NCBI GenBank assembly: GCA_905178155.1
Contig: CAJINV010000004.1
Span: 1,240,881-1,304,880, forward strand
DNA: 64,000 bases
Source of the DNA: Amoebophrya sp. A120
Taxonomy: Eukaryota; Protista; Dinoflagellata
Reading direction: 5' to 3'
The translations under genes were made by a program, and so were the position numbers. The stretch's first letter is position 1, and every line of letters starts with the position of its first letter. Shown here in pieces: positions 1,007 to 51,452 of this stretch. A model generated the notes under the pieces. That model did not search any database. It saw only the letters and a list, made by a program, of their open reading frames with translations, and was not told the DNA's origin.

Positions 1007-4000
1007 CTAGCAACACCCCTCCAAACTGCCGATCTCCGAAGTTGGTGCGTTGCTTGCATGAACAAGGCCTCCAGACCCTTGGCCGCCCCGTATCCTGTGT
1101 AAAAGCGTCCCCACCTCCCCCTAGTCAAGTTGGGACGAGCTCTGCAACGCAACTCCCGAAGTTTGGGGAGTCAACAAGCATATAAAAAGTTTTTCTCTGT
1201 ATTGTAGTGCAGGTTGAGGTTATAGCAAGGACCGCCGGATCACAAAGCCAGCTCCTTATCCTCCTGTAACTGTTTACAGCATTACTACACATAGAATAAT
1301 TATCCAAAACACGACTGAATCAGCACGGCTCTCCTGGGCGATATGTGCAATTTTGTTACGACTCTTCCTGTAATAATTGCATCCAATCTGCGCGACTACA
1401 ACTCTGGGCTGGGAACGTTTTTGCTCAGGATACCGCCTCCGGGACCACGTTCGATGTCCTCGATGACAACCCCGGGTTTACGCGTCGACCCCGAATTGTC
1501 AATCCACGTGATCTATGAAGTGTAAAAATGTCTGGGTCTGGAAGAATCCAACTTGTCATGCTGATTTCGGATTCTAAAAAAATCTGTATTGCATGAGCAG
1601 CCAAGAGGATCCAAGTTTTGCTACACGGAAAGAGCATTTGTCATGCAGATTAGGCATCAGGAAGCCCTCTAAAAATCTGTGATGCTAGGGCATGCATCAC
1701 AGACATCAGGAGTCATGCAAAATGTGCATGACAAACCTGGCAATCTTCCAGACCCAGACATATTTGCATTTGATATGATCGGGGCTCGTGTCGTGCTCGA
1801 AGGTGGTGGGTTGTGATTGTCACCAGCAGCGCTCGCGGTCGTTGTTGTGCTAGAAGAAGAGGCGGGCCCAGAAGTTCTTGTACTGCCATTACCTCCATCC
1901 CCCGTGCTGGCCAGGAAAAACGGCCCCTTCCGCATTTGCTCCCGGGTCAGGAGCAAATCGCGCTCCAACAGTCTGCCGGAATCTTGCGCGGCTTCCAACA
2001 ACGCCTCCCATGCGTCCTGACCTTCGTCCCAACCCCCAGAGTTGGGCCACTGCCTGTTCTCCCCAACTGTCGGGTTGTCTCCGTAAACAAACCCCGACTT
2101 GTATCGCAAACACTGCGCCGTCTCGTGCCAAATGCAACCATTCGCATACTGTGTGGGAGACTGGTCGTTTTCCCACCACTTTCGCAGCACGTCATTCAAC
2201 CTCGTCCACTTTACCTTCGCGGAGAGAATTTCCTTGTTCCAGGTCCCGAGCAACACGTGGCCCACCGACGCGGACACGAAAAACGAGGGGGCGGAAGAGA
2301 GCGGGACAAGTGCGGTCAGCTCCCGGAGTTCGTCCAGGTACTGCTTTCCCCGTTGTTTCGCGTGGCCAACCTCTCCCCTCAAATTCTTCGACACCCCGTC
2401 CTTACCCATCAAATAGGTATCGTAGCCGTGCATCGCGACGAAGTGCCGCACCTTCACGTTGGCGAGGTTGTCGGTATTGCACACCTCGTTGCGGCTGTTC
2501 GGCAGGAAAAAGAGGGCGTTTTTCCGGGGGAAAAAGCACGTCCAAGAAGCAGGGGCGCCACCAGTTGCAGTAGTACTCGTTCCGCGCACATTTTCATGGT
2601 CACAGCCGGACTCGATTTTCGCATTCCAAACGGGCGCACCGACCATGTAATCCTGTTCCAGTCCGTTCGGAGCGTAAGTTGTTGTATCACCATAATTCTC
2701 GTCGTCCATTTCGAGTGGCGTGTTTGCCGCGAGCACTCTCGTGGCGCGCGCGTCGTTTTTCAAGTACCCCGGGGTTGCGAACGCCGCACTCGGGGGTCCA
2801 CGGACGTACCAGGCAGAGTCCTGCAGGATGCCGAATTTTTGGAACGGCACTTCGTGCAGGATTCTGTCCACCTCCGCCTCCGTTTCGAAGCCGCCCCGGG
2901 CGGTCGCGTCCTTTTTCTGCGCCAGAAACTGCAGGTTCAGCTCGTTGAAGACGTGGAAGACCGTGCAGGCCTGCAGCCCCGTGCCCGCCGCGCCGGCGGA
3001 ACTGCCGGCAAGGACGATTTCGAACGGTCGTTGCGCGAGCGTGAACGACGCACCAGGAAGTGCAAGGTCGTTCTGCGCCTTTTGTTGATCCACCACCTCC
3101 TGTCGGACGACAGCGTTCCGGATTGCGGTGGTCACCTGTTTGATAATTCGGTAGCCGTGGAAGAAGACGCCGTCACCCGTCGCGGCATCGGTATTGTAGT
3201 ACCCGACGTCGCTGTTCCCCGCCCACTTGTCACTGCTGCAGTAGGGGAAATACACCTTGTTAAAGTCGTATCCAGGAAAAAAACTGTGTAAGTGTAAGCT
3301 TCTTGGAGGAATAGCATCACAAGTTTGCTCTGCATGACACAGAAAACCTGTCATGCGTAGCTAGTACGTGAAAACATGCACGAAAATTGTCTCTGATGCA
3401 TGTCCAGCATGACAAGTGTAACAGTTTTGCATTTTCTGCAACACAAATTTACACTTACACAGTTTTTTTCTTGGATAAGTCGTGAAACACCAACTCGGTG
3501 TTCGTGGATCCGAGCAAGCGGTCGGCGTCGACGTCCATTTTGAAGCTTTCTCCGTATTACAATGAAAAATGCCCCCAGCCCAAACTTGGCAGCGTTTGTA
3601 TTGCAAACCTTTCCAATAGAAACATTCCCCGTCTTGCATATCTCAGCATCACGAATTTTCCATGCTGAATAGCTCAAATTTGTGTTGCGAAGGAGCCCAA
3701 CAGCAGGCGGATCTGTTTTGCACAAGGCACCTTGCGCACCTAGATTCTGCATCAGAAAGCCTCGCAATCCTTTCATGCAAGACAAAAAGCTTTCATTATG
3801 GAAACTTTGCATGCGAAACTTCTGCAAAGTCCGGGGTGAGCGCATTTTTCACTGTAATACTCCCTTCGACGACTTCAAGCCTTCGCTTCGGCCGTCTATC
3901 AAGTGCAAATATGTCTGGGTCTGGAAGAGTGTGGACTTGTCATGCAGGTTTTCCATGACCCATGAGGTCTGGTCTGGAATGCGGGACCTAGCATGACAGA

Positions 4001-4974
4001 CTCTGTGAGGTCACTGTCATGCCTATCCTGCATGAGAAACTCCCTCTTAACTTGTTCGAAAGTGGGCAGCTTTTGGCGCTCATGCAATACAGATTTTTGC
4101 ATGATTCAGATTTAGCATGACAAGTTGCGATCTTCCAGACCCAGACATATTTGCAATCCATACCGTCGTAGCTGCTGCGAGTCGGCGCGTCCCCACCAGA
4201 CTGGAGGTAGAAGACCCACCTGCCGACAGTGGACAGGTAATCAGCTCTGTCCAGCGCCAGACAGGGGTTCCAGTAGAAAACGTAGTCACTGCCGTCGTTG
4301 CACTTTATGTCGTTGATCGTAGTTCCGCTGGCTTGCGGTTGTTGTTCCAGCGAAAACAAATACAGGCGGTTCTTTTTCGCGCTGCTGTACTGATTCCCGG
4401 GATTCACGTCTTTCAGACGGTTGCAGGCGCTTTCCAGGCTGTCCGCTTCCTTTAGCTCGATCGTGACCGCCGCAGATGAAGCTGTGGCAGCTCTAGAAGC
4501 CTCTACTTCCTGAAGAAATGCTCGCTGGTCTACTTCTCCCTCTACTTCATCTCGTGTCGTCAGCGTCGTATCTGCTTCCGTTGTTTTTGCAAGTGGTAGT
4601 TCCGTTGTACTAGCGCCTTGTGGTTGTTCATCCTGACGACCACGACTAGCTCGTGGTAGTTCTACAACTGCGGTCGCGCCTTTTCTTCCAAAGGTTTTGC
4701 TCTGTTGTAGCAACGTGATTCTCGTCTCGCCGCCGCGGGTGGTGTGGTCTTCAACACGACTCTGCGTTCTTTCAGAGAACGAGTTGTCGGTCCTTTCTTG
4801 CATCAATCCCCGCGAGGACCGTAATGCGGTGGCAGTGGTCCTCTTCCATTCCCGGAGATTCTTATTCCGGCTCTCAACCTGCACTAGGGAAAATTGAAAA
4901 GTAGGCAGGAACGTGGATGAAAATAAGTAACTCGCCACAACCCGACCAGATTGGTGCGAAGATGTCCGCAACAT
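1007..4974 (-). CDS. Notum / pectin-acetylesterase-family secreted hydrolase, paralog 1 (6 exons, 5 TIR introners)
   Basis: Motifs CNDGS..FY, PYCSSDKW, FHGYRI, LAGSSAG (nucleophile elbow), DSAW and GHVLL; hydrophobic N-terminus. The frame is continuous after removing elements 3897-4162, 3555-3859, 3269-3477, 1514-1775 and 1091-1432 plus 5 nt each. Ends ...LEGCC* (last exon chosen by match to the paralog's GGCC*). Confidence 0.8.
1091..1432. mobile_element. TIR introner family B (342 bp)
   Basis: TATCCTGTGTAAAAGCGTCCCCACC...GGGAACGTTTTTGCTCAGGATA; flanks CCCCG/CCGCC (3/5). Removing 5 extra nt gives the GCC-ending frame. Confidence 0.7.
1514..1775. mobile_element. TIR introner family A (262 bp)
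   Basis: TATGAAGTGTAAAAATGTCTGGGTCTGGAAG...CTTCCAGACCCAGACATATTTGCATTTGATA; direct repeat TGATC; restores RAPITWIDNSG. Confidence 0.92.
3269..3477. mobile_element. TIR introner family D (209 bp)
   Basis: TATCCAGGAAAAAAACTGTGTAAGTGTAA TIR; repeat AGTCG; restores VFHDFNKVYFPYCSSD. Confidence 0.92.
3555..3859. mobile_element. TIR introner family C (305 bp)
   Basis: TATTACAATGAAAAATGC TIR; repeat CTCCG/CTCCC; near-identical to 33186-33490 in the opposite orientation. Confidence 0.9.
3897..4162. mobile_element. TIR introner family A (266 bp)
   Basis: Family A TIR; repeat CCGTC; restores SSYDGRSEG. Confidence 0.92.
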
Positions 4975-5856: not shown

Positions 5857-8518
5857 TTAGCAACACCCACCGCCTCCCACTTCCCCCTCTCCTCCTGGCG
5901 GCCCCATGCGAGTCGGCTCCGCGGGGGCGTCGCTCGACTCAAAAATGGTTGTATTTCCTCCCGCTCCGCCCTGTTCTTTCGACACGCCGGAATTGGGAAT
6001 CCAAATCACCGGAGGCCGCTTGGGCTTGGTTGTAGCAGTACTTGCTCCTCCAAGATTAATCCCCAGCGTCGTCGTTGTTGAAGTTGTGGTCTTAGTGGTC
6101 GTTACAGTTGTGGTGCTCGTAGTCGTCGTAGTCGTCGTCGTGCTTGTAAATTGTTCCCGCATGCGCTTCTGCGCTTTTTGGAGCTTTTTTTCCTTCTGCT
6201 CGCTTGCATCGATTGCTGGAGCAAGGACTTCGTTTTTCCATTTCTCCTCCTGACACCTCGGCTCTTGCTCCGGAAGACCGCGGTTTTCCCCCAATGTTGG
6301 ATTGGCGCCGTACAGTCTCATCTGCGATGAGTGTGTGTCGGCTAGCATCAGACAGTCAACACAGTTCTCGTCGTTTTGAAACCAGAGACAGCTGTCGGCG
6401 TACTGTGTGGGGGCACCGTCGGTTTCCCACCAGTTGCGGACCACTTGATCTAGTGACTTGTCCATCACCTCTCCGTCCCACAATACCGTGCCGCCATACG
6501 CAGACAAGAATAACATTCCGGACGACGCGGACACGAAAAACGAGGGGGCGGAGGAGAGCGGGACGCTGGCTGTCAATGTTTTCATTTCGTCCAAAATTTG
6601 CCACCCCCGTTGTTTCCGTGGATTCAACTCAGTGGACGTCATTGGTTGCAGTGCATATTCCATTCCGACGTCATTGGTCCATATTTTATCGTCGTATCCA
6701 TGATTCAAAACGAAGTGCCGCACTTTCACCATGGCACTATTTTCCACGCCACACAATTTGTTCTCCTTGTCCGGCAAGAAAAAAAGCGCGTTTGTCCGCG
6801 GAAAAAAACACTGCCACGTATTTCCAGCCCCGACTTCTTGCGGACACCCCGATTCCAGCTTCGCGTTCCAAGCGCTTGCGCCGACCACAGCCTCCTCTTC
6901 TGCACCGCTCAACTTCTTGTTGCCCACTTGGGCAGTGACGAAAGGCAATAGCTCTTTGGCACGACTTATCAAATGCGAAAGTGTCTGGGTCTGGAAGGAT
7001 GGAACTTGCGATGCTTCCTGTGGGTCACACAAAAATCTGTGTTGCGTGATCACCAAAAGTTGTTTTTTTTTGACCAACACGAGCGGGAGTTTCTCATGCA
7101 GGATAGGCATGATAGACACTTCGCAGAATCTGTCATGGTAGGTCCTGTATTCCAGATGTCATGGGGTATTTTTGAAAATATGCATGACAAGTCTGCACTC
7201 TTCCAGACCCAGACATTTTTGCATTTGATATGACTGTCATTTTGCAACTCCTCCGGCGTTTCGTATTTTGCGGTTGGTGGCCCGCGCAACGACCAGCCAG
7301 AGTCCTGAAATATCCCGAACTTTCTAAATGGGGCTTGCGTGGTGAGAATTTGTTTCACATCATCGTCCGTCACCAACGGTCCCTGTTCTTGTTTTCCATG
7401 GACATTTGCCAAAAACCGCGTATTCAATTCGTTAAAAACGTGAAAGACCGTGCAGGCCTGCAGCCCCGCTCCGACGGCACCGCTAAGGGTCCCAGCAAGC
7501 ACAACTTCGTACGGCGTGCTTCTACGTTCCTCCTGCGATTGTACCTTGGCCCGCGTCTCCTCTATCACGTTGCGAACCGTGGTGGCCACTTGCTTCACGA
7601 TTCTGTGGCCGTGAAAGTAGATTCCATCGCTGAACCCTTTGTCAGTGTCCCCGGACCACTGGTCGCTGCTGCAGTACGAAAAGTGGATCCGGTTGAACGC
7701 CGAAAAAACGGTATCGTCATAACCTGGCTTGAACGGAGGGAAGAGCCAGAAGTGGTTGTTCCTGATTGTTCGCTCGTTGGAGCTCGTCGTCTTCACCGTG
7801 TAAGTTCGGGAATCTTTGTAGTTCTGAAGTGTGGGTGCGCTGCCGCCAGGCCAATCCAGATACAACAGCCACTTCCCGAGGCTGGAACCAATCCGAGCTT
7901 CAGATTCGAACGCACGGCAGGGATTCCAGTAAAACACGTAGTCACTGCCGTCGTTGCACTTCAATGCTGAGTTCTCGATGGAAAACGCATACAATTCGTT
8001 CTGCAGCCTGTCCCCGAGGCTGCCATCGTAAATCTCGGGATTGTTTTGTAACTGGATAGAGTATCACCAGGACGCAGTTTGATGGTCTTCGCGTCAGTTC
8101 CTTTATTTGTCGTCAGTGTAGCACGACTCGACGTAGTTCTTTGGCGCCCCTGCTGGTGCTGCTGCTCCTCTTGCTCTACTACTTTCTTCTCGTGCATACT
8201 AGCAGTCGCAGCAGCTTCCGCTTGTTCCGCCAAAAGCAAAGCACTTGAGGACCCGCTGCCACTTCGGGTGGTCCTCGTTTGCTCGGCATCGTCCCGCGTC
8301 TGGGTAGTTTCCCTTTCCTCCCATGGAGGCGACCGCGTGATTTTTCTCCTCATCTGGTCACGATGTCGCGCATTCTTCCTTGTTGTTTCACTGTTCACGA
8401 CCTTCAGCGACAACTGAAGCGTGGGCAGAAACAGGGAAAAATAGAGCGCTACTCGTCGAACGCTTCCGCTTAGCAACATGACGCTTGGAGGTAGAAGCGG
8501 ATTTTTAGTTGAGTTCAT
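5857..8518 (-). CDS. Notum / pectin-acetylesterase-like paralog 2 (probably catalytically dead; apparent frameshift near 8055)
   Basis: Collinear with paralog 1 (CNDGSDYVFYWNPC, YCSSDQW, CFFPR.NALFFLP, VPLSSAPSFFVSAS). GSSAG is replaced by GTLSG. One introner at 6967-7230. Confidence 0.72.
6967..7230. mobile_element. TIR introner family A (264 bp)
   Basis: Family A TIR; repeat CGACT/TGACT; restores QNDS(R/H)AKELL. Confidence 0.92.
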
Positions 8519-8752
8519 CCTGCAGAAGATTGCAACAGGAACGATTTTTGCACTGGTTTGGAAGGGCAGATTGGTGTACAACGGGGTCGTGGTCGTGCTT
8601 TTGCTAGTGCTGTTTCGCTAACTTTTACTTAAATAACTGACAGCAAAAACCGCAGTCTTGTGTCCGGGGAATAAAAAGATATGTGTACCTTAATACGGGG
8701 GTAGCTGTTCTTGTACGTAATTTGTAGAGTTTTGCCTGAGCGGACGAAAGTA

Positions 8753-11528: not shown

Positions 11529-14500
11529 TCAGGCTTTGTTTTGCTTTTTCTTTTTCCCCCCCTTTTTGAGTTCTTTCCTTTTGCTAGTGAGCAAGACCGC
11601 TTTGTCTACTTTGTCCTTCTCCGTTTTCTCGATTCTCTGCAGCAGGCGCTGGTGCTTCTTCGGCATCATCGCTTTTCTCCTCGCCAAGTCCTCCGCGGCT
11701 TCCCGTTCAGCCTTTGTCAGCTTCTTCTCGACAGGAGGCGCTGTACTAGTTGTGCCTGCAGCTGCAGCTGCTTTCTCTGCTGCTCCTGGTCCTGCTGTGT
11801 CGTCTTCATTTTTCAACATCATCTCTGAGCTTGCTGCTTCCGGTTTATTTGACGCTGCATCTTCAGCCTCCTCGTTCTCCTCTGCGCTTGTTGAGCTGCC
11901 ATCGTCCTCCGCATCATCATCGTCCTCTGCCTCCTTCTGCCTCGCGAACTCACTGGCCCAGACGCCCTTGGCTTCGGCCTGCAGTTCCTTCAGAAATTGT
12001 GCTTCGTGGTCTATTTCCTCGTCGTTCTTGTCAGCTGCATTGACGTTCTTCTCCGCGCCTGCGAAGGATGAACTGCTCGAAGATCCACCGCTGAGCAGTT
12101 TGTTCAAGATTTCCCGTCTCTCCGGCACGTAACCCTCCTCCTTGTCGTCCACAAAGGGGGACAAATGCGGCGGGCAGATTTTGTCCGGCAGGTAGGGATC
12201 CACCGGGAGTTTCAGGTTTTCGTTGAAGGAGTCCAGCACCCACTGCGGCTGCACGTATTCCCGCCCGGGGATTTGGGTGAACTGACTGGAGGGCCGGTCA
12301 ATGATCTGGTGCGTGATCTTCTTGTCGTTCTCCTTGAAGGGAGAGGCTGGGAGAAGCGACCAGCCGACCTGTGGGATTGGATTTCGGTTTTTTTTCACAT
12401 AGTGCATTTATATCCAGCAAACAAAACCAAAACACCTTTAGCTTTACTTCTTTTTTCCGTTTTCATCACTCTGTCTGTCATCATGCAAAAAAATTCCTCC
12501 ATCATTTCACAAGTATAGATACCTCCGCCCCACCGGACTTGAGCACAAAGTAGATGGAGTGGAAGGGCACTTCCCTTTGGATAAAAACCCGCATGCCGGA
12601 AAAGACGCCTTTAGAACTACTTGGCTGCTTCAGCAGCTGTAGTTGCTGAACTTCTTCGGATATCAAATGTAAAAATGTCTGGGTCTGGAAGAGTGCATGT
12701 TTGTCATGCTTGTCTGGCATGAGTCTTGAATCTGTCATGCACGTTACCCAAGAGCTCCATTTTTCTGCGATGCAGAACCGCAGTTTGTCATGCAGAATAG
12801 GCAACACCTAGAGGCTCAGGAACTTGTCATGCTGAGCCAGCCTTTGTGGCCCCATCATGAGACGCCACCCAGCATCACAAGTTTCCAGACCCAGACACTT
12901 TTACATTTGATATCGGACACGGCTGCGAAATCCTGGATTGTCGCCGCCTCCACCTCGCGCTTCTCGTTCTGTCGCTGCTCTTCGGTCTGCTGAACCTAAT
13001 GTATCAATATTTTTGCCATGTTGCACTCGCACGCTTCTTGCGCTAGTACATTATCTAGAAGTAAGAACTAGCATTCTTGTACAGGAGCAGTCTACCCCGC
13101 ACGTGTCAGTCGTTACTTATCTTCCTACAGGTGCAAAGATGTTGAAAATGGTTATTTTCTCTCATTAGTAGTGTGTGCAACTACAGGCTTCTTGTACTTC
13201 AATAGTAAATACCTTCTTCGAGTCCGCATTTTTGACGTAGAATTTCGCCATGTCTGCGGCATCCCGTTTGTAGTTGAATTTTGGTGGGTACTCAAATTTC
13301 GCCTCCGCGAAATATCAACTATAAAAATGTCTGGGTCTGGAATTGTCATGCTGATTTTGGATTCTAAAAAAATCTGTATTGCATGAGCAGGAAAGAGAGT
13401 CCAAGTTTCGCTACACGGAAAGAGCATTTGTCATGCGGTATAGGCATCAGGAAGCCCTCACAAAATCTGTGATGCTAGGGCATGCATCACAGGCATCAGG
13501 AGTCATGCAAAATGTGCATGACAACCCTGGCAATCTTCCAGACCCAGACATTTTTACATTTGATACGAAAAGCTTGAAGTTGATAAACTTCAGCATGGTG
13601 CGGTAGAATTCGTTGAAGGTGCCCATCACCTGTTTTTTGAATTTGAATAATTTTCCGGGTCTTTTCATCAAGATTTTTCTTGTCTTGTCGACTTCCCAGT
13701 CGTGCAAGATATAAATATTTATTTTTCCAAATGCGAACAACAGACCTGATGAACAGCACTCATTTTCTTGTCATGCTGCAAATGAGGCAAAGTAAGGAGA
13801 TGATTCCGATCATTTTTACTGCCACGAGCACAAACAGCAGAAAAACGAAGCAATTTATCATATCGTAAGTACCCGAAAGTCCACCTCGGCCGGCAGTTCC
13901 TGGGTGTACTTGTGCGGCACGAGCCAGGTGACGGTTTCCCCCTGGATGTCTGCTTGGAAGTAGTAGCCCTTGATGCTCGCAAAGCACTTCTTCAAAGACT
14001 TTGTCTGGATCACGTACAGGAAAAATTCGTGCACCAGCCTGGCACTCTCCTGCACCACGTCGCCACGGATTTCATTTTTCTGGTCGGTTGGCAGGCAGTC
14101 GTAGAGCGCGACCATGGAAAGCGAATCATCCAAATCCCGGATCGCGTCGCTGAAAGTCGGGTAGCGCTCGCGGACCTGTGGTATGGTGATGTTCGAAATT
14201 CTTGTCTTGATGTGTAATGCAGCATCACAAAGTACGTCGTTGGTTCCTCAACACACTACATCAGTATGCAATGCGAGTCGTGGTCTTCTTGCTCCTGCTC
14301 GATTCCATGACACATCGAAATCCCGTGCTGCAACCAAGGGAAATCGAAATGAAAATAAGTAAGTAAGCCCAAAATAAACCTTCGAGAATGAAAAAAATAC
14401 CAGATGATGCAGCGTGTATTCCGGTTTGTTTTCCTGCACCCGTTTCGCGGTGTTCTTATCCCCCCTCCCCAAACATTTTTTGTACTTCTTCATGTAGGTT

Positions 14501-34767: not shown

Positions 34768-37700
34768 TCAGTACTCATCATCATCCGGCGACCTCCCACC
34801 GGTATACCCGCTCGTCATCCAGCTTGATCTCTGCTCGTCTTCCCCGCTTTCCCCCAGGTAAGATCCAAACTCTATTCTGCGGAAAGACGTCCCCACACCA
34901 GAGTCAAGATGGGCAATCTGCTAGACAAATCAGCCAGCTTTGGTTGTTTCGCATGACAAGTTTGTCGTCGTGGTGTAGTCCTGTTTAGGTAGTTCAGCAG
35001 CATTACAGGTCTAGCATATCATGCTGATCACAGCATCACAAATTCCAAAACACGAATGGAAAATGCCTCTCAAGGCACTCCGCATGAGAAACTTTTTTGG
35101 CATGCAGATTTGCATGGGGACGTTCTTACTCAGAATAAACTCCGGCATCGGGGCGGAATCGCCGTTCCCGCCCAGAAATTCTTCAAATAACGCGTATCAC
35201 AGGAAAAAAGTGTTACAGTTACACGACATTTGTTGGAGTTTCTGCATCACAAAGTTGCTCGACATGGCAACGAAAACCTGTGATGCGCAGACTATAAGGG
35301 AAAACACGAATCAAATGAGGCTGGCATGCATTTCCTGCATGACAGAGGTTGTCTGTCTTGCTTGTCTTCCATCAGTAGAGTGTGTAACTGTAACAGTTTT
35401 TTCTCGGGATAGCGCGGCGTCAGATTTTACTGGAACTTGGTGTTTCTCAGCGAGAACGTCAATGTCCACATCGGCGATCTGAGACGATAGAAAAATGAAC
35501 ATAATAGAGACATATGATAGCGTGATGAAGAGCGCGCAAGACAAACGGCACTGCAAGTGCGAATTTCGCATGACAAAATCAAAAACTAGTATCTATACAT
35601 CCACTTCCACTTCTGTGCCGAACGTCGCTGCCCCCGCCGGATCGTTGCCACTGTACAGGTGTGAAAAGGTTGAATTGTCGCTGACGGGCCGTGCAATTTC
35701 CCCGTGATGCTCCGCGACATAATACGAAGTGACGGAATGTGTCGAAAAAGCGGAGGACCCCGCACTCGTAGACGATCCGGTAGAACTCACCGACCCGGTA
35801 GAGTGTGCGCCCTTGCTGTGTGAGGACTGATGCGGCTGTTCTTGCGATGAGGCCGCTGTGCCGCTGACAGCGCTCGTTTTCATGGGCGAAAACGTTGGGA
35901 ATAGGCTGGGTTTGTTCATCTGCGATTGATCCGTTGTAACTCCATAGTGGCTATCTTGTGCAAGAACGTGCGGTGCCACTGATGCTCCTCTCGGGGGCTC
36001 GTCTGAAGACGTAATAATTCCAGGACCGCTGGATAAGTTGTAACTGGAGTTGCCTATTGATGTTCCTTCAGTGGAGGTCCTCTCATGATTCGAGACCCGC
36101 CCCATCTCCAAATCAGAGAGCTGGTCCGGATTCATCCCCACAGCTTGCTTCTCGCTCCTATTCGCATTGGAACTTATTTCCTCCGGATCCACCGTTGGAA
36201 CGGGTTGGAATCTTGTTGTTCCACCGCGCTGTGGTGGTCCTGGTCCTATTTGTATTTGCTGTCCACCAGCACCACTCGCTAGCAAAGTCGCGTTGTGCCT
36301 TCCACTATACAAATAGCTGCTGCAGAAGAAGATCACAAGAGCGAGACAGAAGGAGATGTTCACATCCTTATGAAATGCAAAAATGTCTGGGTCTGGAAGA
36401 GTGCAGAAGTTTGTCATGCACGTTTTGTATGGGCCATGGTGTCTGTGATGCATGCCCTAGCATCACAGACTTCGTGATGCCTATTCCGCATGACAAATGC
36501 CCTCTCCGCGACGTAGCCAAAATTGCATTCCCTTTGCTGCTTATGCAATACAGGTTTTTTTGGAATCCAGATGCAGCATCACAAGTTCGGATTCTTCCAG
36601 ACCCAGACATTTTTGCAGTTGATAATCCTCACCGGCGAACAACAAGTAGTTGAAAAACGTGACCGCCAGCACTTGCACGCAGCTTGCATATCAAGTGCAA
36701 AAGTGTAGTCTGGATCTGGAAACTTGTGATGCTGGGTGGCGTATCATGAGGAGGCCGCAAGTGCTGCCTCAGCATGAGAAGTTTCTGAGCCTCTAGGTGT
36801 TGCCTATTCTGCATGACAAACTGCGTCTCTGCATGACAGAAAAATGGTGCGCTTGGGCAACGCGCATGACAGATTTGAGAGTCATGCCAGACAAGCATGA
36901 CAAACATGCATTCTTCCAGACCCAGACACTTTTACATTTGATAGTGCAAACCCTTTCACAATGTTGTCGAAGTAGGAAAGTAGGAAGCTCGCGCCCAACC
37001 CCTCGGCGGCCTTCACGAGGATGAGGAGTATCACTGGTAAATTGAAGCCGTGGAAGAAGGTTTGGTTGCTGTTTAGCGAAACGAAGCACGCGGTCCCGTT
37101 GAGCAAACAGCCCCACTGGTACATCCAGAGGTTCTTCTTCATAAAACTTTCCTCACTGTCCATCCGCTTCAGCAAAAACTCGTTTACCACCCCGCTGGAA
37201 CCGCTCAGAACGCAGGTCGCGATCACGGCCAGAAACCCGAAAAAGAACTTCTGGTGCTGCTGCGAGCTCAATATTTTTGCGTTTTCTGTTGCACTGTCCG
37301 TTGGTGTTGTAGCTGCTGTGCCAACATCCTGCTCTACTACTACGCCTGGTTGTGGTTGTTCTACAATCGCCTTATTCATCTGCTCGTCGTGGTGTACTAG
37401 GAGTTCTCTGTCCTTCCCCACTTTCGCCACGCACAGACTGCACGCAAGCAAAACGAGCGCGACCCACTGGATCTCATTCAGCTTCTTCTGCATTAACACT
37501 CTCGCAGCGACGGCGGCGCAAAGGACCTTCCCGGTCGAGAAAAGCGCGTAGTAGTGGGGACCAAGGCCGTAGGTGGCGTAGAAGGTCAGGTTGTTCAGAA
37601 TTGCATACCTGAGTTGTATAGGTTGTTCGGCAATAAAAAGTAAAAGGTTTTTGGCATGCATAATTAGAACAAGTAGAGTACCGTTCGAGGGATAGCACCA

Positions 37701-39045
37701 CTGACATTTACAAATCGTATACAAAATCATCTCAGTAGAACAAGAAGCAACACCAAATTATAAGCAAGGAAGAAAAAACACAATACTTTGTACAGGAAGC
37801 TGGGTATCCCGTAGACCGCCCACTGATTCCAAGAGATTTTTCCCGTACTACTGCCAAACTGCTGTTTTCTCGGAACGGGAGTGTTATTCCCTTTTTTGTC
37901 CGCTTCCCTCCGCAGCTCGCTAGCGTAGCAAACCGCCAACTTCACCGCTTCGATGCAAAGAACCGCCGACGCGGTATGGATTGCAAAAATGTCTGGGTCT
38001 GGAAGAATCCAACTTGTCATGCTGATTTTGGATTCTGAAAAATTCTGTATTGCATGAGCAGCAAAGAGAGTCCAAGTTTTGCTACACGGGTGTCATGCGG
38101 TATAGGCATCAGGAAGCCCTCACAAAATCTGTGATGCTAGGGCATGCATCACAGACATCAGGAGTCATGTAAAATGTGCATGACAAACCTGGCAATCTTC
38201 CAGACCCGGACATTTTTACATTTGATACGCGGTGTTGTATTCCAACTTCCCGCATCAACTGTAAAAATGTCTGGGTCTGGAAGGTTCTGACACTTGTCAT
38301 GCACGTTTTGCACGAGCCCTGATGTCTGTGATGCATGCCCTAGCATCACAGATTTTTTGAGAGCTTCTTGATGCCTATTCCGCATGACAAATGCCCTCTC
38401 CGCGTAGCAAAAATTGCATTCCTTTTGGCACTCATGCAATACAGATTTTTCTGGAATCCAAATGCAGCATCACAAGTTGCATTCTTCCAGACCGAGACAT
38501 TTTTACATTTGATATCCCGCTGTCCTCTTCCGAAAACCGGATCAACAGCGTTTATCCTGAGTAAAAACGTACCCACACCAGAGTTGTAATGCAGATTTGC
38601 AAAAACAGGAAGACTTGTAATGCGCATCCCCATGAGATTCATTTCCAATTGTGTTTTGGAATTTGTGATGCTGTGAACAGGATGAGCAGATGAATCTGTG
38701 ATGCGGCTGCACTTGCTAACCTGCACTACGCTGCAGAGTGCAACTTGTCATGCGTGACTCACAAAACTCCTAGGTTTGTGTTGCAAAATCCCCATCCTGA
38801 CTCTGGTGTGGGTACGTTTTTACTCAGGATAGCGGTCCCAGGCTGCTCATCGTGACGTAGTAGACAAAGACCGCAATGTGGAGGGGGGAAAGACCAATGA
38901 TTGCATGAGGTTCCATACTGATCCCGCCTGTGGTCGTGTTGCTGTTTTTGCTGTCTCGTGGTCCAGAATGTTGTTGAAAGTAGCGCTGCAAAGAGGACCA
39001 GAGCTGGCCGTGCAAAACGGAGGCTGACGTCGTGGGCGCGACCAT
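34768..39045 (-). CDS. SLC35A-type nucleotide-sugar transporter with long C-terminal tail (7 introners, 2 GT-AG introns)
   Basis: LLIRFS, YNTASAVLCIEAVKL, IPSFLYAILNNL, QWVALVLL, SGVVNEFLLK, YFDNIVKGFA. GT-AG introns 37609-37793 and 35479-35598; the tail exons are less certain. Confidence 0.88.
34873..35137. mobile_element. TIR introner family B (265 bp)
   Basis: TATTCTGCGGAAAGACGTCCCCA / TGGGGACGTTCTTACTCAGAATA; repeat AACTC. Confidence 0.85.
35195..35411. mobile_element. TIR introner family D-like (217 bp)
   Basis: TATCACAGGAAAAAAGTGTTACAGTTACAC / GTGTAACTGTAACAGTTTTTTCTCGGGATA; repeat ACGCG/GCGCG. Confidence 0.85.
36369..36624. mobile_element. TIR introner family A (256 bp)
   Basis: Repeat ATCCT; restores FAGEDVNISF. 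Confidence 0.92.
36689..36943. mobile_element. TIR introner family A (255 bp)
   Basis: Repeat TTGCA/GTGCA; inverted relative of 12661-12912; restores KGFA(S/R)CVQV. Confidence 0.92.
37975..38227. mobile_element. TIR introner family A (253 bp)
   Basis: Repeat CGCGG; restores YNTASAVL. Confidence 0.92.
38253..38514. mobile_element. TIR introner family A (262 bp)
   Basis: Repeat TCCCG; left end reads CAT instead of TAT; restores DSGKLEY. Confidence 0.9.
38553..38831. mobile_element. TIR introner family B (279 bp)
   Basis: Perfect 32-bp TIR TATCCTGAGTAAAAACGTACCCACACCAGAGT; repeat GCGTT/GCGGT. Confidence 0.93.
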
Positions 39046-41349: not shown

Positions 41350-43173
41350 TCAGCATGCATTCAGTAGTCTCCGCCACTTCCATGTTTCGCCGTTTCTGTA
41401 TACCCCGTCATCTTCCTCTTCGTCCACGTAGACTATCGACAGCCATATCTTCCCCTGCGGAAACAGCTTAAACTGCTGCACATATCAAAGTGAAAGAAGC
41501 CCCCTCCCCATATTGAAGCGGAAGCTTCTGTTGCTGGATTTGTGTACACACATCAGATTTGTCTTGCTGTAGAAGACTGCAGGCCTATAGGAAGCCTGAG
41601 CGGAGAGGTTTTGGGCAAGGCGCCGAGCATGGCAGACGTCTAGTCTGCACGGCCAACAGCATCACAAACCGCCTGCAGGATGCGGCGGAGCCTGTGGAGT
41701 TCCGTTCTTGCAAGACAGAGACGATTTGTGGTCACAAATCAGCATCGCAAATTTTTTGAAAGGCGCCTTTTCGATATGGGGAGGGGCGATTTTTCCTCAC
41801 GATAGCACGTCATCCATCTCGATGATGCTCTTCACGTCCGTAGAGCTCAACTATCGAATGCAAACATGTCTGGGTCTGGAGGGTTGGAACTTGTGATGCT
41901 GCATTTGGATACCAAAAAAATCTGTATTGCACGAGCAGCAAAAGGAGTCTAATTTTTGCTACGCAGCAAGGGCATTTGTCATGCGGAACAGGCATCAAGA
42001 AGCCCTCAGAAAAACTGTGACGCTAGGGCATGCATCACAGACATCATGGCTCATGCAAAACGTGCATGACAGGTCTCAGAACCTTCCAGACCCAGACATA
42101 TTTGCAACGCATATCAACTCAAGCGACCCGATCTCGCTGCTACCAAGCAGATCTTGGGAGCGACAGGTGATGTGCAGCTTGTCCTCTTCCTCAGTGGGGT
42201 CGAAATTCAGCTGCAGACACTCTTTCAGGACCTGATATTAACGGAATTTTTGTTATTGTTTTTCATTCTACTATAATTTCATGCACAAACACAAACAACG
42301 TCGACATTATTTGATGCAACAGAAACACGCTTGAAACTGAGCTCCCCGGCGCGCCACGAATTCGTATGCTACACGTCAGACGCATCTTTTCCTTCGCAGG
42401 CACTATAGTAGTATACCGCCCCGCTTCCCGCACTCTTGTGCACCCTCGTCCTTACCCTTTCGTTGCTCGCGAGGCTGAGTTCCACGAAGAGGTCGTTCGT
42501 TTTCATGATAGATGACGCGGATAGCTCCTCGACTTTGAAAACGTATACCTCTATTGGCCGTTCGCTTGTCCCAAGTCCGCAGCAGGCGTACACGTCCTTC
42601 ATGCTAAATCTGATAGAGGAGAGTCGCAGAGATGAATTATGTTGACACGATAACTGTACTAGTCGTAGTCCTAGTCGTACGTAGTGCTTCTCGAATAAAC
42701 AAAATTACATTTTTCATTCCGAATAAAAGAACCTGAAATAGCTCCACGGCCGCGCAAACAAAACATCCAAATTCATGAACTTACCTGACCAAAACCTGGT
42801 TTTCGATGCCGAGCAGGATCTTGATTCTTTCCCGCATGATGAAAAGCAAAAAGAACGCGAAGAGAATCAGCCCCGAGCTGGCGAAAACATTCAAATGCAC
42901 GCCGATTTCCGCCAACCCAATTCCCACCCACTCAAAATATTGCCCGACGTTCCAGTCCGGCAGAATGGCCAACACCAGGAGAAGAAACACGAAGTTCGCA
43001 ACGAACGCAAGGGTGTAAAACGCAAGTAACTTCGCTTGCAAGTGCTGGCCCAGTTTCCGTGCGGCGGGGGTAGGCAGCCCGGTCAGGTAGAAGGGGAGGA
43101 TGACGATAGCAAAGAAGCCGAAGGTAATGATGAGCAGCAGCCAATCCTGATATTCCACCGGGAACGAGGACAT
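41350..43173 (-). CDS. Membrane protein (3 N-terminal TM segments) with C2-like C-terminal domain
   Basis: Hydrophobic exon 1; NDLFVELSL...RVRTRV, LHITCRSQDLLGSSEIG, GKIWLSI. GT-AG introns 42610-42784 and 42232-42416; two introners. Confidence 0.7.
41483..41804. mobile_element. TIR introner family E (322 bp)
   Basis: Ends ...GATATGGGGAGGGGCGATTTTTCCTCACGATA; repeat GCACA/GCACG; restores MDDVQQFKL. Confidence 0.87.
41852..42113. mobile_element. TIR introner family A (262 bp)
   Basis: Repeat TCAAC; restores SLELSSTDV. Confidence 0.92.
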
Positions 43174-44016: not shown

Positions 44017-47000
44017 TCAACCCCGGCCTCCGCCTCCGCCCCGCCGGCTGTTCGGAGGGGTTTTCTGCGCATTCCCTTTTTTCTTGTTTTTTTCCCGCAT
44101 TTCGGCCTCCCGTTCCTGCCGTTCGCGGAAGCGTTGCCGGCGTTCCAAGCGCTCGGCCTGCTTTTCGCTTCCGACGCGCATCGAGACAAAGAACAGCTTC
44201 CACATAATCAGGGCCTGATAGTACATGACGATCATTTTTGTATGTGATTTCTTGGTCTACTTCCAAAGCGTCATCAACATGGCAAACCGACACGTCGATA
44301 AAAACGTGAAATCGCTATCGCAAGATGAAAATGATCTAGAATCTTCAATTAATACAATTATTGTTGTGCTGCCGTCCTTCCAGGGGAATATCAACTTCGA
44401 GTTCGCGCCCCACTCTGCGTAGGGGCCCCACCAGCGCTGTTCCCCACATTCTATTTGCTCTGCCGCGGCCTGAGCGAGTTCTATCCCAGTGACCCGGTGC
44501 GCGTGTACATCCCACCATCGATTCGACCGGATGTCATACTCTATGTCACGGTACTGGTAGATCAGCTGAATTCGCTGGGTGGCATTGCGGTTACTGTTTT
44601 GGATACAAGTTTTTAGGTCAGTGTCAGTTTTCTCAACTGGGAGTTTGTTTTCATTGCATACAGTCCGACATTTTTTGTCATGTGCACTATGGTTTACCCT
44701 TAGAAAATGAGTTACTCGTGCGTACCACAATTCATATGCGCGACATGGGAAAAAAATTATGTCGATAATACTTCTCATAGCCATCCTGCAACTCCTTCAG
44801 ATCGCCCCGGAGAAGGCTCCAAGATTCCGGCGCTCGGGATCCCAGCAGCGAGGCGAGGCTGTTTTTCACATGATCACAAAACATCAACTCCATGTGTTCT
44901 ACTAAAAATACCTCGAGCACGCAACTACTTCTGAGCCCATTGAAGAAGCGGTCGGTAAATTTGCAAGAACCGTGAGCAACAAGCAGTACTAGCAGTGCTG
45001 CTCGTTGCTGATGTTTCTGCGCATCTACTTTGTCCAAAAGCAAGCATCCAAACAATTACCATGCACAACTATTATTTGTTTCCTACCTCTTGATCCACCC
45101 GGGTAGCGGCGCCTTCCCGTGACTCGCAATCTATCAAATGCAAAAATGTCTGGGTCTGGAAACTTGTGATGCAAGAAAGGGAAGAGTAGGGAGCTCACTG
45201 TAATGCGCTGTCCAGCATGACAAGTTTTTCCGTGGTTCAGAGTTGCGTAATCCGCATGAGAAACCACGTTTTTGAATGACAGATAGGAAGCGCTTTTCGC
45301 GGGCACGCAATACAGAGTTCAGAGTCATGCCAGACTAGCATGACAAATCTGGCAATCTTCCAGACCCAGACATATGTGCAGTTCATACAATCATCCGCGG
45401 CACGATCTGGTGCAGCGTGGTCTCTACCCGCGAGGAGGTTTATCGAAATGAAAAAACCCCCCTCCCCCTATCAAAACGAAAATCTGTGTTGCGGGATTTG
45501 CGTACACAAATCAGCTTTGTCTTGCAGTACAGGACTGCAGGCAGATGCAAAGCCTGGAAAGGGGCGCTTAGAGGTGGCCGCTTCGCATGGCAGACGTCTG
45601 CCCTGTTGGCACAATAGCACTACAAATCGCCTGTGTAATGCGGGAGGAGGGACCTGGCTTTGCTCTCTTGCAAGACAGACCCTATTTGTGGCCGCAAATC
45701 TGCATGACAAATTTTCAGAAGGATGCGCTTTCGATATGGGGAGGGGGGATTTTTCCTCACAATAAGGTTGGCACGATCCCGACACTGGGCCGATCCTCGT
45801 CATCTTGGATTCTGTTCCGCATCGCCAGCCAGTTGTTGGATTCCGCGACCCGGAAAGTGAGCATTTTCCTATACGCCGGCTTTTCCTCCGGCGGTTGTGC
45901 CGCCGCAGCTCCGGTTTCCTCCCGCGACTTACCCCCTCCCGTGTATTCCTTCGACAAATGTTGCTGCGCATTTGCAGCAGCAGCTTCCACCCCCATCGCG
46001 GGCACCTCGTAGTAGTCTTTTTTCTTATTCCGCGTCCCCCGGTTTTCTTCCAACTGCACCACTCGCGGCGGGCTCTTCACCGCCGCCTTCTGCCCCGGCG
46101 CGGCCTGCTTCTTCGGCGGCAGGGAAACGGAGTTGGGGCAGAAGAACTCGGTCCCGTAAATGGGCGGGGAAAGGAGTTGCCGCACGTTCAGGGAGAAAGG
46201 CGGGTCGGCCGAGGTGGTAGTTGTAGTTTTGTCTAACGCGTCAAATTATGAACTGCAAAAATGTCTGGGTCTGGAAGAATGCGAGATTTCTTTGTCATGC
46301 TGATTTTCCATGACCCCTGACTTCTGTGATGCATGCCCTAGCGTCACAGATTAAAATCTTTTTTCGTAGAAAAAAGATTTTACTTCCTGATGCCTATACC
46401 GCATGACAAATGCTCTTTCCGTGTAGCAAAAATTGGACTCTCTTTGCTGCTCATGCAATACAGATTTTTTTAGAATCCAAATGCAGCATCACAAGTTCCA
46501 ACTTTCCAGACCCAGACACTTTTGCAATCCATACAAATGCTTCTGAAGTTGTATCGAACACCACATGGAAGTGGTGGTACCAGGAAAGCAAGCTGGTCAG
46601 CAAATAGACAAAAACCAACACCTGCTTTTTCACAAAGTGCCCCCCCGGATACAAGATCCCGACCCCCGCGGCCTCGACCGCCGACAGACCGCCGGGACCG
46701 AACACTTTGCCCGCCTTTTCGTCGATCTTCCTCGCCGTGCGAAACAGTTTCAACCCAAACACGATGGTGGTCAGGAAAAACACGAAGGTTAAGACGGTCT
46801 GCAGCTCGTCCGGGGTCGTTAGGGTGTTCAGATTGGCTGTCGTGAGCCGCGCGACCAGGAACAGTATTGGGTAGAAGCATACGACGGCGAGGAATATGTG
46901 CCGCATTTCCGCCCAGGAATATTCTACTTGCTCGTTGTCGAAATGAAGCGATACGCTCTTCACTTCCCCCTCTTCGTCGTAATCTGCTAGTTTTTCCTGC

Positions 47001-48899
47001 TCGTTGTTCTTTCTCTTATTTAATAGCGTTGTGTTCTTCTTGTTCTCCAATGCTTGTTGTACTCCCTCCCCCTCCGAGTTTGATCCTGTTCCTGTAGCAC
47101 CACTGCCCGATGAACCACTGGCGATTTTGCTCGCGATCTCCACCTGCTGGGCAAACGCTTCTTCGTCCAAGCAGCCCCAGTTCTTCACCACCTCCCGGGG
47201 GAGACGGAGCCAGTGGTAGGTCCGCCCGACGTTCCGGTTGTCTAAGCGGCAGCCGATGGAGATGAAGAGGGCGATCAGCAGGAGCGGCGTCCAGGCGGAG
47301 GCTTGCAGTCCGACAAAGTACATGAGCACGTTCCCGGCGAGGAGAAAGAGGGCGACTTCCTTATCCAAGAAAAAAACACCATCACAATCACACTTGGGAA
47401 GTTTTGCATCAGAAATTTGTCTCGCATACTAAATTTTTCTTGTATTGCAAAAACACAAAGGGAAATCGCCTACAACTCTTGACTGTGATGCAGTTTTGCG
47501 CATGACAAAAATTTTTGTATTGCAAAACTGCGCAAAAGTGATTGTGATGGTGTTTTTTTCTTGGATATTCCTTCACCCACATGTATTTCGAGGTCCAGCT
47601 GTTCCCGCACAACGCCATATGCACTGCAAAAGCATCGTACTAGTATAAATCGCATGACAAATTAGCTCAGCAGGAGAAATGAAATTTGTAATGCGGGTTC
47701 AACTTAACAAAGAAATTTCTAATGCAGAAATGCGATCGGTACGAGTACGATACTTTTGCAATGCATAAGCCACGATGGGCAGCAACACCGTCGCGGAGAC
47801 GATCCAGAACCAGGTCAGGTACCGCACGAACACCGGGCGCGGGTCCAACCGCAGGTACCAGGCCAGGCTGCTCGGCTCCGGGAACTCGTAGCTGTAGGTG
47901 AGCCACGTAAAGTCCCAGAGCGACGCGCACACCAGCGGTGTCCGGTCAAACTGGTCGTTGCCGAAAAGGGGCAGCACCTGGCTGCCGGTGGTGGAAGAGG
48001 AGAAAAAGGTGAAGAGAAACCGGAACAAACAGAAATTCAGGGCGGGTCTGGTGCAGTGGCTCCAGTCGGCGGTGCTGATACCGAGAACGGAAACGAGAAG
48101 CCCCACTTCAATCAGCAGATTGTCGTAGTCCCTGATAAAATAATTTGCAAAACATCTAGAAGCGAGATTTATGCTGCTCGTCTAGAAGATGTTGAAAGAG
48201 GTTGTATCTACTATACACTTCAAATTTTGACACGACCGATGCCGATCATCTATGACCATCAAAATGTTGAAAGAACAGGTTGTAAACAAATAAAGTTGTA
48301 CTTCCAAAACAGCATGGGCCCGGAAATTGCGTTCACTGCTGCGTACACGATGGTGTTAAACAGCAGAATTATCCGCGGCCCATTGACGCCGAGCTCATAG
48401 TCGCCCAATAGACTGAGCAAGATGCTCAAAACGAGGCCGCTGACGAGGGCGTAGCCCTGGTTGATAGTTTAAGAAATTATGATTGTGGTGATTTATTCTG
48501 CAACCTCCCTGTGTGACGGTGAGTTTGATCGGTGAACAAAAGCACAAAAAACTAAATGAAGCCGCTCCGACAATCAAGAAGTACTTACTAACTTACCACA
48601 ATATCCTTCATCGTTGTCGGGCTCAACCAGGACGGAAAGACCGCATCCAATTTCGAACCCAGAATCCCTTGGCACCCGTACAGTCCCTCCACATGCTGCA
48701 ATACCGACGCGAAGGCGAAGAGGAAGCAAACGCCAAGAATTCTCGTGATCAGAAAGGATGTCTCCGTGGTCGCCGATATCCTGTCGACAACATCCTTGGC
48801 CGCTTCTTGTTCTGTAGAAGCCGTGTCTTGCTCATTTTTGTTCTTCCCCCGGGCACTTCCCGGGGCGCTACGAGGCGTAGTCGTCGCGCTGGCGCTCAT
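44017..48899 (-). CDS. Lipase maturation factor (LMF)-like ER membrane protein (some exons unresolved)
   Basis: RILGVCFLFAFASVLQHVEGLYGCQGIL, DNLLIEVGLL, FCLFRFLF, LWDFTWLTYSYEFPEPSSLAWY, IYQY...RWW resemble LMF motifs; five introners. Confidence 0.65.
45132..45387. mobile_element. TIR introner family A (256 bp)
   Basis: Repeat CAATC; restores PRMIASHGK. Confidence 0.9.
45441..45764. mobile_element. TIR introner family E (324 bp)
   Basis: Repeat AGGTT; interior related to 41483 and 33613; restores VPTSSRVE. Confidence 0.9.
46247..46533. mobile_element. TIR introner family A (287 bp, carries an extra hairpin)
   Basis: Repeat CAAAT; inverted relative of 13313-13565; restores SEAFDALDK. Confidence 0.9.
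47362..47567. mobile_element. TIR introner family D-like (206 bp)
   Basis: Perfect TIR TATCCAAGAAAAAAACACCATCACAATCAC; repeat TTCCT; restores WVKEVALF. Confidence 0.92.
47618..47767. mobile_element. TIR introner family F (150 bp)
   Basis: TATGCACTGCAAAAGCATCGTACT / AGTACGATACTTTTGCAATGCATA; repeat CGCCA/AGCCA; restores PIVALCGN. Confidence 0.88.
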
Positions 48900-50064: not shown

Positions 50065-51452
50065 TCACTCATCGTCCTCCGTGAAGGCCTCGTGCTCGGC
50101 CAGCCGGTCCGCATCCGACATTGGCGGCACGTTGTTCGTAACCACCGGAACCTGTTCCTGTTCCTGCTCACCTTCCATCTCGTCCCCGCCCGTGTTCGCC
50201 GTGGTGGAAAACTTTTTCTCCACTTGCAAAAACGCTGCCTTGGTGCTCGCGGAGGCTGCTGCTGTCAATAATGTACAACTCATGAAGATGAATCAATGTG
50301 GAGAAAAATGCCGCAAAACATAGTAGTAAGCCTATTTCTCCATGTTGAATTATATTTTAGCATCCCATTCGCACAACATTTTCGCATATCCTGCAGAAAA
50401 TTTGAAAACATTTCATTTTTTCATACCTTCATTCTCCCCACCTTTGTTCAGCCCCGATTTCGTCGTTTTGGAAGTTCCGGCCACCAGCTGCAGCAACACG
50501 GACCTCTGCTGGTTCAGCTGTTTCAACTCCGAACGCAGCTGCGACTGCATGAACTGGTAATTCTTCAACTCCTTTTCGGCTTGTTCTGTGGTGGCGCTAG
50601 TAGAAGAGGACAAAGTGCTGGCACTACTACTCGACAGCTTTTTCGAGTTCTTCATCCGCTCCAACGCCATCTTCGCCCCCGTGGTTTTCGCCCTCGTCTG
50701 CAACAGCGACTCCACCGTGTTGATTTGGTGTTGCTGCGCCCAGGTCTGTTGCGAGTACTTGGTCGCAGACTTATCAAATGCAAAAATGTCTGGGTCTGGA
50801 AGATAGATAATTCCGAGATTTGTCATGCAAGTTTTTCCAAGCTCCACCAAGTCTGGAATGCAGGACCTAGCATCACAGGATCTGCAGCCCCTTTTTGATG
50901 CCTGTTCTGCATGAGAAATGCCCCCTCAGCATGGCCAGAAATGAGCACCTTTTGCAAGTCACGCAATACAGATCTTTGTATGATGCGCAACATGCATCAC
51001 AAGTTGCGTCCTTCCAGACCCAGACATTTTTGCATTTGATAAGATTTGAACTCCGCCAGTTCCGCGTTGCACTTCGCTAAATTCAGGTCGTGCTGCTCTA
51101 GCTGTTTCCGCATCGCGGACAACGCCCTCTGCATACTGGTCACGGAAAACATGGACTGGGAATTGGCGAGAAGCAGCGATTGCAGCATCGAGCGCGTCTG
51201 TTGCGCAGTGTCGGTAAGCGACTCCACCATTTTCGCCGTTCTGTCGGTCACGGAAACGGCACTGCCGACGGGCGCGGACTGGGCCAAAACCTGCTGGATT
51301 GGCAGGAGACTCAGCAGCGACGACGACGAGAGGAAATAAAGCATTGTGGCAGAAAAAGACGCAGCGAATAGTTGTACACGACCAGGCCGCATTCTGGCCT
51401 TAGGCCAGGCCATCATGGTGGGAGTGAATGGTTTTATTTGTGGCGTGGTCAA
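50065..51452 (-). CDS. Hypothetical secreted/anchored coiled-coil protein
   Basis: Hydrophobic N-terminal segment and heptad-rich body; introner 50772-51041; probable GT-AG intron 50262-50426. Confidence 0.6.
50772..51041. mobile_element. TIR introner family A (270 bp)
   Basis: Repeat AGACT/AGATT; restores AEFKSATKY. Confidence 0.92.

Follow-up and report, generated by a model that had tools for sequence, protein, structure and literature searches.

The closest described relatives of the elements considered here are the introner elements of Amoebophrya sp. A120 itself, whose inverted repeats are described as TAT, seven looser bases and at least three A, with direct repeats of 3 to 5 nt that overlap the border of exon and intron, and whose 29,850 copies are reported to make up 17% of the A120 assembly (Farhat 2021; PMC7789003). 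An A120 family, number 38, is listed elsewhere with "5-bp TSD, TA/TA Termini" (TSD, target site duplication) (Gozashti 2025; PMC12130899). For A120 introners, both the class and its anatomy, repeat length included, have therefore been published before. About two thirds of the introns in this genome lack GT-AG, and we found no paper showing how these are cut. Here, we analyzed a 64,000-nt stretch of A120 DNA (contig CAJINV010000004.1, positions 1,240,881 to 1,304,880; referred to as the window), in which 30 elements with terminal inverted repeats (TIRs) interrupt genes. These elements are non-GT-AG introns that, wherever tested, are removed precisely, together with one copy of a flanking 5-nt repeat. 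A reading of the window made from sequence only had linked them to Amoebophrya introners, correctly, as they match the published A120 class; since that class is published, the window adds examples and not a new system.

The elements share with the published A120 introners the TAT + 7 nt + AAA motif, the 5-bp repeat of the example in Fig. S19 and likewise a mean length of about 240 nt, occurrence in repeated families, RNA-supported removal and the lack of fixed splice dinucleotides (PMC7789003). There is no difference in kind, and what the window adds is a pair of signals, from repeat mismatches and from an asymmetry between element ends, for a cut before N-TAT. Members of family 38 are given as about 808 nt long with integrase-like open reading frames (PMC12130899), whereas the window elements are noncoding and 150 to 342 nt long. 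The IS3EU/GingerRoot transposons share TA..TA termini and TIRs with the window elements, but their target duplication is described as usually 6 bp (PMC10045372), compared with 5 nt in the window, where a 6-nt repeat is perfect in 0/30 elements, and we do not file the window elements as members. Autonomous copies of these transposons have an integrase-like DDE transposase; no transposase was found here, in a survey of the window and the 140 additional loci described below.

Three other systems offer partial likenesses. The introns of Fritillaria borealis are described as derived from miniature inverted-repeat transposable elements, with TIRs and TSDs, mostly non-GT-AG, and handled by an altered U2 spliceosome (PMC13326754; PMC11282704), but their reported preferred ends are AG-AC and AG-AT, with U1 kept and U2AF duplicated, whereas in A120 neither +1 nor the 3' end is constrained and U1 small nuclear RNA (snRNA) was not detected. 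Fritillaria shows that re-tuning of a U2 spliceosome is possible (PMC13326754). Euglenid nonconventional introns share an end-to-end stem, TSD-like repeats and noncanonical borders with the window elements, but they are reported to have pyrimidine|purine borders and to leave as circles (PMC11282704), whereas repeats of the window type show no base preference. The internal eliminated sequences (IESs) of ciliates are removed from DNA, whereas element-exon junctions persist in the one DNA run available to us. Compared with a regular U2 spliceosomal intron, finally, the window elements lack the GT/GC donor and the AG acceptor and have a constrained U+2 and A+3 in the register that we propose below.

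The number of elements (30), their grouping into seven TIR types and the state of their repeats (perfect in 20/30, with one mismatch in 9/30 and two in 1/30), all given by the sequence-only reading, were confirmed by independent scans. A search for paired TAT and ATA ends whose arms agree at 17 or more of 25 bases returned 44 pairs. Of these, 27 were single elements flanked by a 5-nt repeat and were kept, and 17 were dropped because they combined ends of different elements, were internal or lacked a repeat. Three further elements (36689-36943, 38253-38514 and 41483-41804) were recovered by an end-motif scan. The types, grouped by end sequence and interior alignments, have 16+4+3+3+2+1+1 copies; interiors are similar among copies, stop codons occur in 88/90 sense frames, and both orientations are present (the element at 3555, for example, shares its family with that at 33186 in opposite orientation). 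The 5-nt length is well above chance, as repeats of 2 to 4 and 6 to 9 nt are perfect in only 0 to 2 of the 30 elements. TAT...ATA ends, earlier ascribed to every element, hold for 29/30 (59/60 ends begin with TAT); the element at 38253 starts with CAT on the + strand, so that its sense 3' end is ATG. The TIR type at 29580 lacks the A run. No register within the repeat gives GT-AG in any of the 30 elements; as stated earlier, TACAA (31121), AACCT (45441), TCCCA (29580) and ACTTA (17603) offer no GT/GC/GA-AG or AT-AC register, and such a register does exist in three others, as AT-AC at 33186 and GA-AG at 36369 and 47362.

All host genes of the 30 elements lie on the minus strand. Pfam matches identify PES1, a BMS1/TSR1 gene, RPN5, a nucleotide-sugar transporter and two pectinacetylesterase (PAE)-like genes, and the hosts number ten, as claimed before, or 11, as 22405 and 29580 may or may not share one gene. 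An RPN5 exon and a PAE-like gene each match an A120 protein (P0001 and P0010, respectively) with 100% identity over the aligned part, as expected of A120 or a near-identical strain. Removing the element plus 5 nt five times reproduces 852/852 residues of P0010, and doing so four times reproduces P0001 around its two GT-AG introns. Support for removal is divided among transcript joints (10 of 30), record lengths (7), annotated proteins (6) and reading frame only (7: 6967, 12661, 13313, 17603, 22405, 29580 and 50772). The claim that deletion of element plus 5 nt restores the frame each time is borne out by P0010 and P0001, while the frame at 12661, 22405 and 29580 comes from the codon model alone. 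The annotated protein of the second PAE-like gene was not returned by the protein search.

Transcript contigs from four runs of one sample (X3 to X6) skip all ten elements between 33500 and 42200 by exactly the element plus 5 nt. For eight of these, the skip is a direct joint present in 4/4 runs; the elements at 37975 and 38253 are crossed by a single joint, with the letters of the 25-nt exon between them visible in two runs. GT-AG introns are skipped in the same transporter contigs as the introners, which indicates that these contigs are spliced transcripts. Seven more removals fit transcript record lengths exactly: 756 = 310+258+188 for the RPN5 record, 676 = 366+170+140 for a second, and 1429 = 882+141+178+228 for a third, which is one of four intron sets with that total and the only one with an open frame. 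The RNA mapping that had been proposed as a check therefore came out in favor of exact removal at 10/10 tested elements, with no use of cryptic GT-AG sites and with live host genes.

In DNA run X1, contigs span from an element end through the exon to the start of the next element with 0 differences and at a depth of 42 to 46 (eight records listed), which resembles unique sequence; over the elements themselves, the depth summed over contigs exceeds the unique level by a factor of hundreds to thousands. The assembly may derive from this same run, which would then not be independent, and contigs drop rare forms. As the elements are kept in the DNA run and absent from the spliced contigs, removal takes place at the RNA level. 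A raw RNA run with the same species label (X9) yielded only 12 mapped reads, all on elements, and no junction or lariat reads.

A perfect repeat hides the register of the cut, and a mismatched repeat reveals it. The transcripts retain at least one base of the left (+) repeat copy at 35195 and 36689, at most two at 33613, at most three at 38553 and at most four at 41483. Together, these five mismatched junctions place the cut, if it is fixed, 1 or 2 nt before TAT in the sense direction; the annotated proteins at 1091 and 3555 exclude only retention of all five left bases. All five informative junctions agree with the earlier proposal that the boundary sits at a fixed distance from the TIR, although five are few. 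With the 1-nt register, the intron reads N-TAT...ATA-NNNN. The GT-AG donors in the window that are supported by joints, record lengths or P0001 are GTA in 9/9 cases, five of them GTAT. Repeat mismatches by sense position (14, 12, 10, 6 and 11) and their direction were uninformative. In 102/222 elements (P = 2e-4; L001-L140 plus the window), the point between repeat positions 4 and 5 coincides with a codon boundary, an excess that resembles the phase-0 excess of ordinary introns and may instead reflect a symmetric target preference; since a preference of this kind with its center at the third base of the repeat would produce an identical excess, we did not use it to set the register.

The main TIR motif was searched against a metagenome collection and yielded 140 loci, of which the 80 listed belong to a single other assembly. 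The loci have only repeats in common with the window, and no empty orthologous site was seen among them. A 5-nt repeat is perfect in 223/304 candidates of this second assembly and a 6-nt repeat in 0/304. Filtering retained 285 elements with no more than two repeat mismatches, 228 of them in a coding-like frame and 225 with enough flank. Among these 225, in keeping with what had been noted for the window, there is no target consensus, and the repeat positions match the composition of the flanks; A occupies TIR positions 11 to 13 in 90 to 98% of ends. Orientation counts (44:34, 12:11, 9:7 and 7:2) are about equal, with no bias.

The two ends differ in what they tolerate. A search without the TAT requirement gave 349 elements including those of the window, of which 286 could be assigned a strand individually; ends that fit the search pattern were left out of the comparison. 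At the sense 5' end, the first T is changed in 0/228 cases, compared with 8/241 for its mirror base, A, at the 3' end (Fisher P = 0.0075); a stricter run gave 0/202 versus 7/210. With strands assigned by locus, the counts are 1/276 and 8/291 (P = 0.038), the lone exception being a GC start in a weakly stranded locus. Elsewhere in the TIR, about 2.5% of bases are changed per position at either end, so that the chance of no change at the first T is 0.003. Position 3 of TAT leans the opposite way (5 versus 2), and a plain strand mutation bias is therefore not a simple cause. As a symmetric transposon should be indifferent to the direction of transcription, the constraint likely acts on RNA. In the proposed register, the 228 sense 5' ends contain no change at U+2 and one at A+3; in spliceosomal introns, no donor base varies less than U at +2. 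The register idea predates the asymmetry test.

We consider it somewhat better than an even bet that a modified U2-type spliceosome reads N|UAU as a donor without G and cuts one base before the element. A transposase encoded elsewhere, producing TA..TA ends and a 5-bp target duplication, would insert elements with little target preference. The 5' cut would then fall one base before TAT, giving an intron that begins N-U-A-U, which would be the commonest donor of the genome, GUAU, with its G relaxed. The TIR stem may bring the far end alongside, with the 3' cut placed at a set distance, 4 nt downstream of the closing ATA, and not by AG, so that four bases of the upstream repeat and one of the downstream repeat would restore the original exon. 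As the TIR is symmetric, the same donor would be presented in either orientation. We give slightly less than an even chance to a more specific version, in which a U1-less A120 spliceosome has dropped both terminal guanosines and accepts any base at +1, with U+2 and A+3 supplied by the TIR and the 3' cut measured by distance from the stem; if so, every insertion would be a perfect intron from the outset, whatever its orientation and wherever in an exon it landed.

Published observations are compatible with such a machinery. A120 is reported to have U2, U4, U5 and U6 and 83/89 spliceosomal proteins, with U1 snRNA and SNRNP27 not detected, and T stands at +2 in every one of the nine top motifs listed for A120, and likewise for A25, in Table S4 of the same report (PMC7789003). 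A U at +4 pairs with the unmethylated U6 ACAGA in yeast, and a preference at +4 has been linked to METTL16 and SNRNP27K (PMC10581693); the reported absence of SNRNP27 in A120 is at most suggestive of a connection with U at +4. Were the proposed register correct, spliceosomal catalysis would tolerate free first and last intron bases, and this would explain how transposons could reach about 17% of a genome without killing RPN5, PES1 or BMS1. The register and asymmetry signals predict the exact intron ends as N-UAU...AUA-NNNN. Among freely available papers on Amoebophrya, Syndiniales, introners, splicing and lariats (hence without Roy 2023 or Henriet 2019), we found no report that fixes the cut register or describes the 5'/3' asymmetry, and Figs. 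3 and S19 to S25 of Farhat 2021 may already show the N-TAT register.

Several points weigh against a relaxed spliceosomal donor. A pair between the first and last intron bases is described as normally needed for spliceosomal chemistry (PMC13326754), and random ends cannot always supply it. Only five junctions inform the register, none with a mismatch that separates 1 nt from 2 nt, and registers drawn at random would fit all five with a probability of 0.19, roughly one in five (hand calculation). G at +1 is not enriched (66/225, compared with 31% G in flanks), and canonical registers are not in excess (36 versus 34.0 ± 5.4 expected; GT-AG, 13 versus 11.0 ± 3.3). A bias of the first and last bases in the 1-nt register falls from P = 0.002 to P = 0.07 after codon-phase matching. 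The asymmetry consists of 8 or 9 events at one of three positions tested, and the strands come from a codon model checked only on its own training window (29/30). The motifs in Table S4 depend on the aligner, and the authors call the border position unknown (PMC7789003). The transcript contigs all derive from a single sample, which is recorded as RNA by guess, and a lariat, a branch point and dependence on the spliceosome would be expected under this reading.

An unlikely but serious alternative is a spliceosome-independent, structure-guided nuclease and ligase that cuts pre-mRNA at fixed, staggered positions flanking the TIR stem at its base. Such an enzyme has been proposed for euglenids, whose nonconventional introns are reported to leave as full circles (PMC11282704). 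The alternative would account for ends with no canonical dinucleotide and no selection for one, and for the near-equal frequency of both orientations. U1 snRNA was reported as not detected in A120 or A25 (PMC7789003), and a relative with canonical splicing is reported to have U1 (PMC12005148). Folding of one element gave an end-to-end stem of very high stability (-149.9 kcal/mol; z = -9.1) and TIRs occur in all elements, but a strong stem is expected of any TIR element and says nothing about the enzyme. Against such an enzyme, the genome's own donors have the same constrained bases (5' T, then A), and the 3' pairing partner can change with removal kept, as at 38253, which a pure stem reader would not predict. 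The asymmetry points to an ordinary spliceosome with relaxed ends rather than to the "second excision system" of the sequence-only reading, which the data do not establish.

It is improbable, though less so than the readings that follow, that the spliceosome removes the elements with a cut 2 nt before TAT or one floating within the repeat. The 2-nt register passes all five informative junctions, and since the repeat is duplicated, any register yields the same mRNA. With a 2-nt register, however, the invariant T would be intron position +3, which is A in 9/9 canonical donors here. No alternative repeat variant at a mismatched site is among the joints listed, although contigs drop rare forms.

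Excision at the DNA level in a somatic or stage-specific genome, like that of ciliate IESs with pointer repeats, had also been suggested, and we regard it as very improbable. The single repeat copy left behind has the geometry of pointer removal, and of the 1417 joints in the mapping that includes the DNA run, 15 were listed. The DNA-run contigs nevertheless carry element-exon junctions unchanged at unique-like depth, in one run, and the element-free contigs also lack GT-AG introns, as spliced RNA would. Amoebophrya is not known to have a separate germline nucleus in which elements could be kept. Finally, that these are dead alleles, or that removal uses cryptic GT-AG sites away from the ends, is the least probable reading; 7/30 elements have neither RNA nor annotated-protein support, but 10/10 tested junctions are exact element-plus-5 removals in contigs otherwise matching the window.

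Table 1. Elements, host genes and GT-AG introns in the window (positions on the + strand of the window; strand, sense of the host gene; P0001 and P0010, annotated A120 proteins; joints are those of transcript contigs)
Feature	Position	Strand	Basis or remark
Introner, PAE-like gene 1, repeat with two mismatches	1091..1432	-	removal matches annotated P0010
Introner, main family, PAE-like gene 1	1514..1775	-	scan and P0010
Introner, PAE-like gene 1	3269..3477	-	scan and P0010
Introner, PAE-like gene 1, repeat mismatch at + position 5	3555..3859	-	P0010
Introner, main family, PAE-like gene 1	3897..4162	-	scan and P0010
Introner, main family, PAE-like gene 2	6967..7230	-	paralogue P0010 aligns across junction
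Introner, PES1	12661..12912	-	coding frame by codon model only
Introner, PES1, adjoins Pescadillo_N match	13313..13565	-	Pfam and reading frame
Introner, BMS1/TSR1-family gene	17603..17854	-	removal joins 696 + 346 open codons
Introner, unnamed gene	22405..22717	-	coding frame by codon model only
Introner, own TIR type, unnamed gene	29580..29895	-	coding frame by codon model only
Introner near RPN5 C-terminus	31121..31372	-	P0001 residues 349-470 continuous once removed
Introner, RPN5	32883..33135	-	transcript record length and P0001 match
Introner, RPN5	33186..33490	-	transcript record length and P0001 match
Introner, RPN5	33613..33933	-	joint 33606/33933 skips 326, 4/4 runs
Introner, nucleotide-sugar transporter gene	34873..35137	-	joint skips 270, 4/4 runs
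Introner, transporter gene	35195..35411	-	joint skips 222, 4/4 runs
Introner, transporter gene	36369..36624	-	joint skips 261, 4/4 runs
Introner, transporter gene	36689..36943	-	joint skips 260, 4/4 runs
Introner, transporter gene	37975..38227	-	joint over 37975 and 38253; exon letters between shown in 2/4 runs
Introner, transporter gene, sense 3' end ATG, removed precisely all the same	38253..38514	-	same joint as 37975
Introner, transporter gene	38553..38831	-	joint skips 284, 4/4 runs
Introner, unnamed gene	41483..41804	-	joint skips 327, 4/4 runs
Introner, same unnamed gene as 41483	41852..42113	-	joint skips 267, 4/4 runs
Introner, predicted membrane-protein gene	45132..45387	-	transcript record length
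Introner, membrane-protein gene of 45132	45441..45764	-	transcript record length
Introner, membrane-protein gene of 45132	46247..46533	-	record length; transcript piece begins at 46534
Introner, membrane-protein gene of 45132	47362..47567	-	transcript record length
Introner, 150-nt type, membrane-protein gene of 45132	47618..47767	-	transcript record length
Introner, main family, unnamed gene	50772..51041	-	removal joins 145 + 118 open codons
31st element, TAT...ATA, outside the 30; host not clearly coding	57472..57746	unassigned	end-motif scan
RPN5/PSMD12 gene, four introners and two GT-AG introns	31066..34060	-	
PAE-like gene (P0010), five introners, coding region without GT-AG intron	1010..4974	-	
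GT-AG intron, transporter gene	35479..35598	-	skipped in contigs that skip introners
GT-AG intron, transporter gene	37609-37786	-	skipped likewise
GT-AG introns, gene neighboring the transporter	39859-40041 and 40235-40385	-	skipped likewise

The 31st element has a repeat with one mismatch, at + position 2, which would separate the 1-nt from the 2-nt register if its host lay on the minus strand and were transcribed. No copy of autonomous size was found in the window or the 140 loci; of two long candidates of about 1 kb, one proved to be three adjacent elements. The element at L054:2501-3472 is 972 nt long; its ends are of the main family and its 5-nt repeat is perfect, but its interior is unrelated. 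The main TIR motif had no match among viral contigs, and no Rfam family matched in the window. Remnants of elements of the 150-nt family, halved or decayed and each with a single recognizable end, lie at 16373-16512 and at about 8780-8889, and the former seems to sit inside a BMS1 GT-AG intron, near its 3' splice site.

Exons of 25 and 38 nt (38228-38252 and 38515-38552, repeats included) are retained exactly between adjacent elements of the transporter gene, although same-family neighbors could pair end to end across them. The same gene uses alternative GT donors 7 nt apart (37609-37786 and 37609-37793), the longer form appearing in one low-depth contig and shifting the frame. Among the GT-AG introns of the window (e.g., those at 32433, 42232, 44215, 48132 and 16373), several acceptors end in TATCAG, many are preceded by A-rich and not pyrimidine-rich tracts, and G at donor position +5 is not conserved. 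The two PAE-like genes (1010-8063) are tandem paralogues, 38% identical, that carry five elements and one element, respectively.

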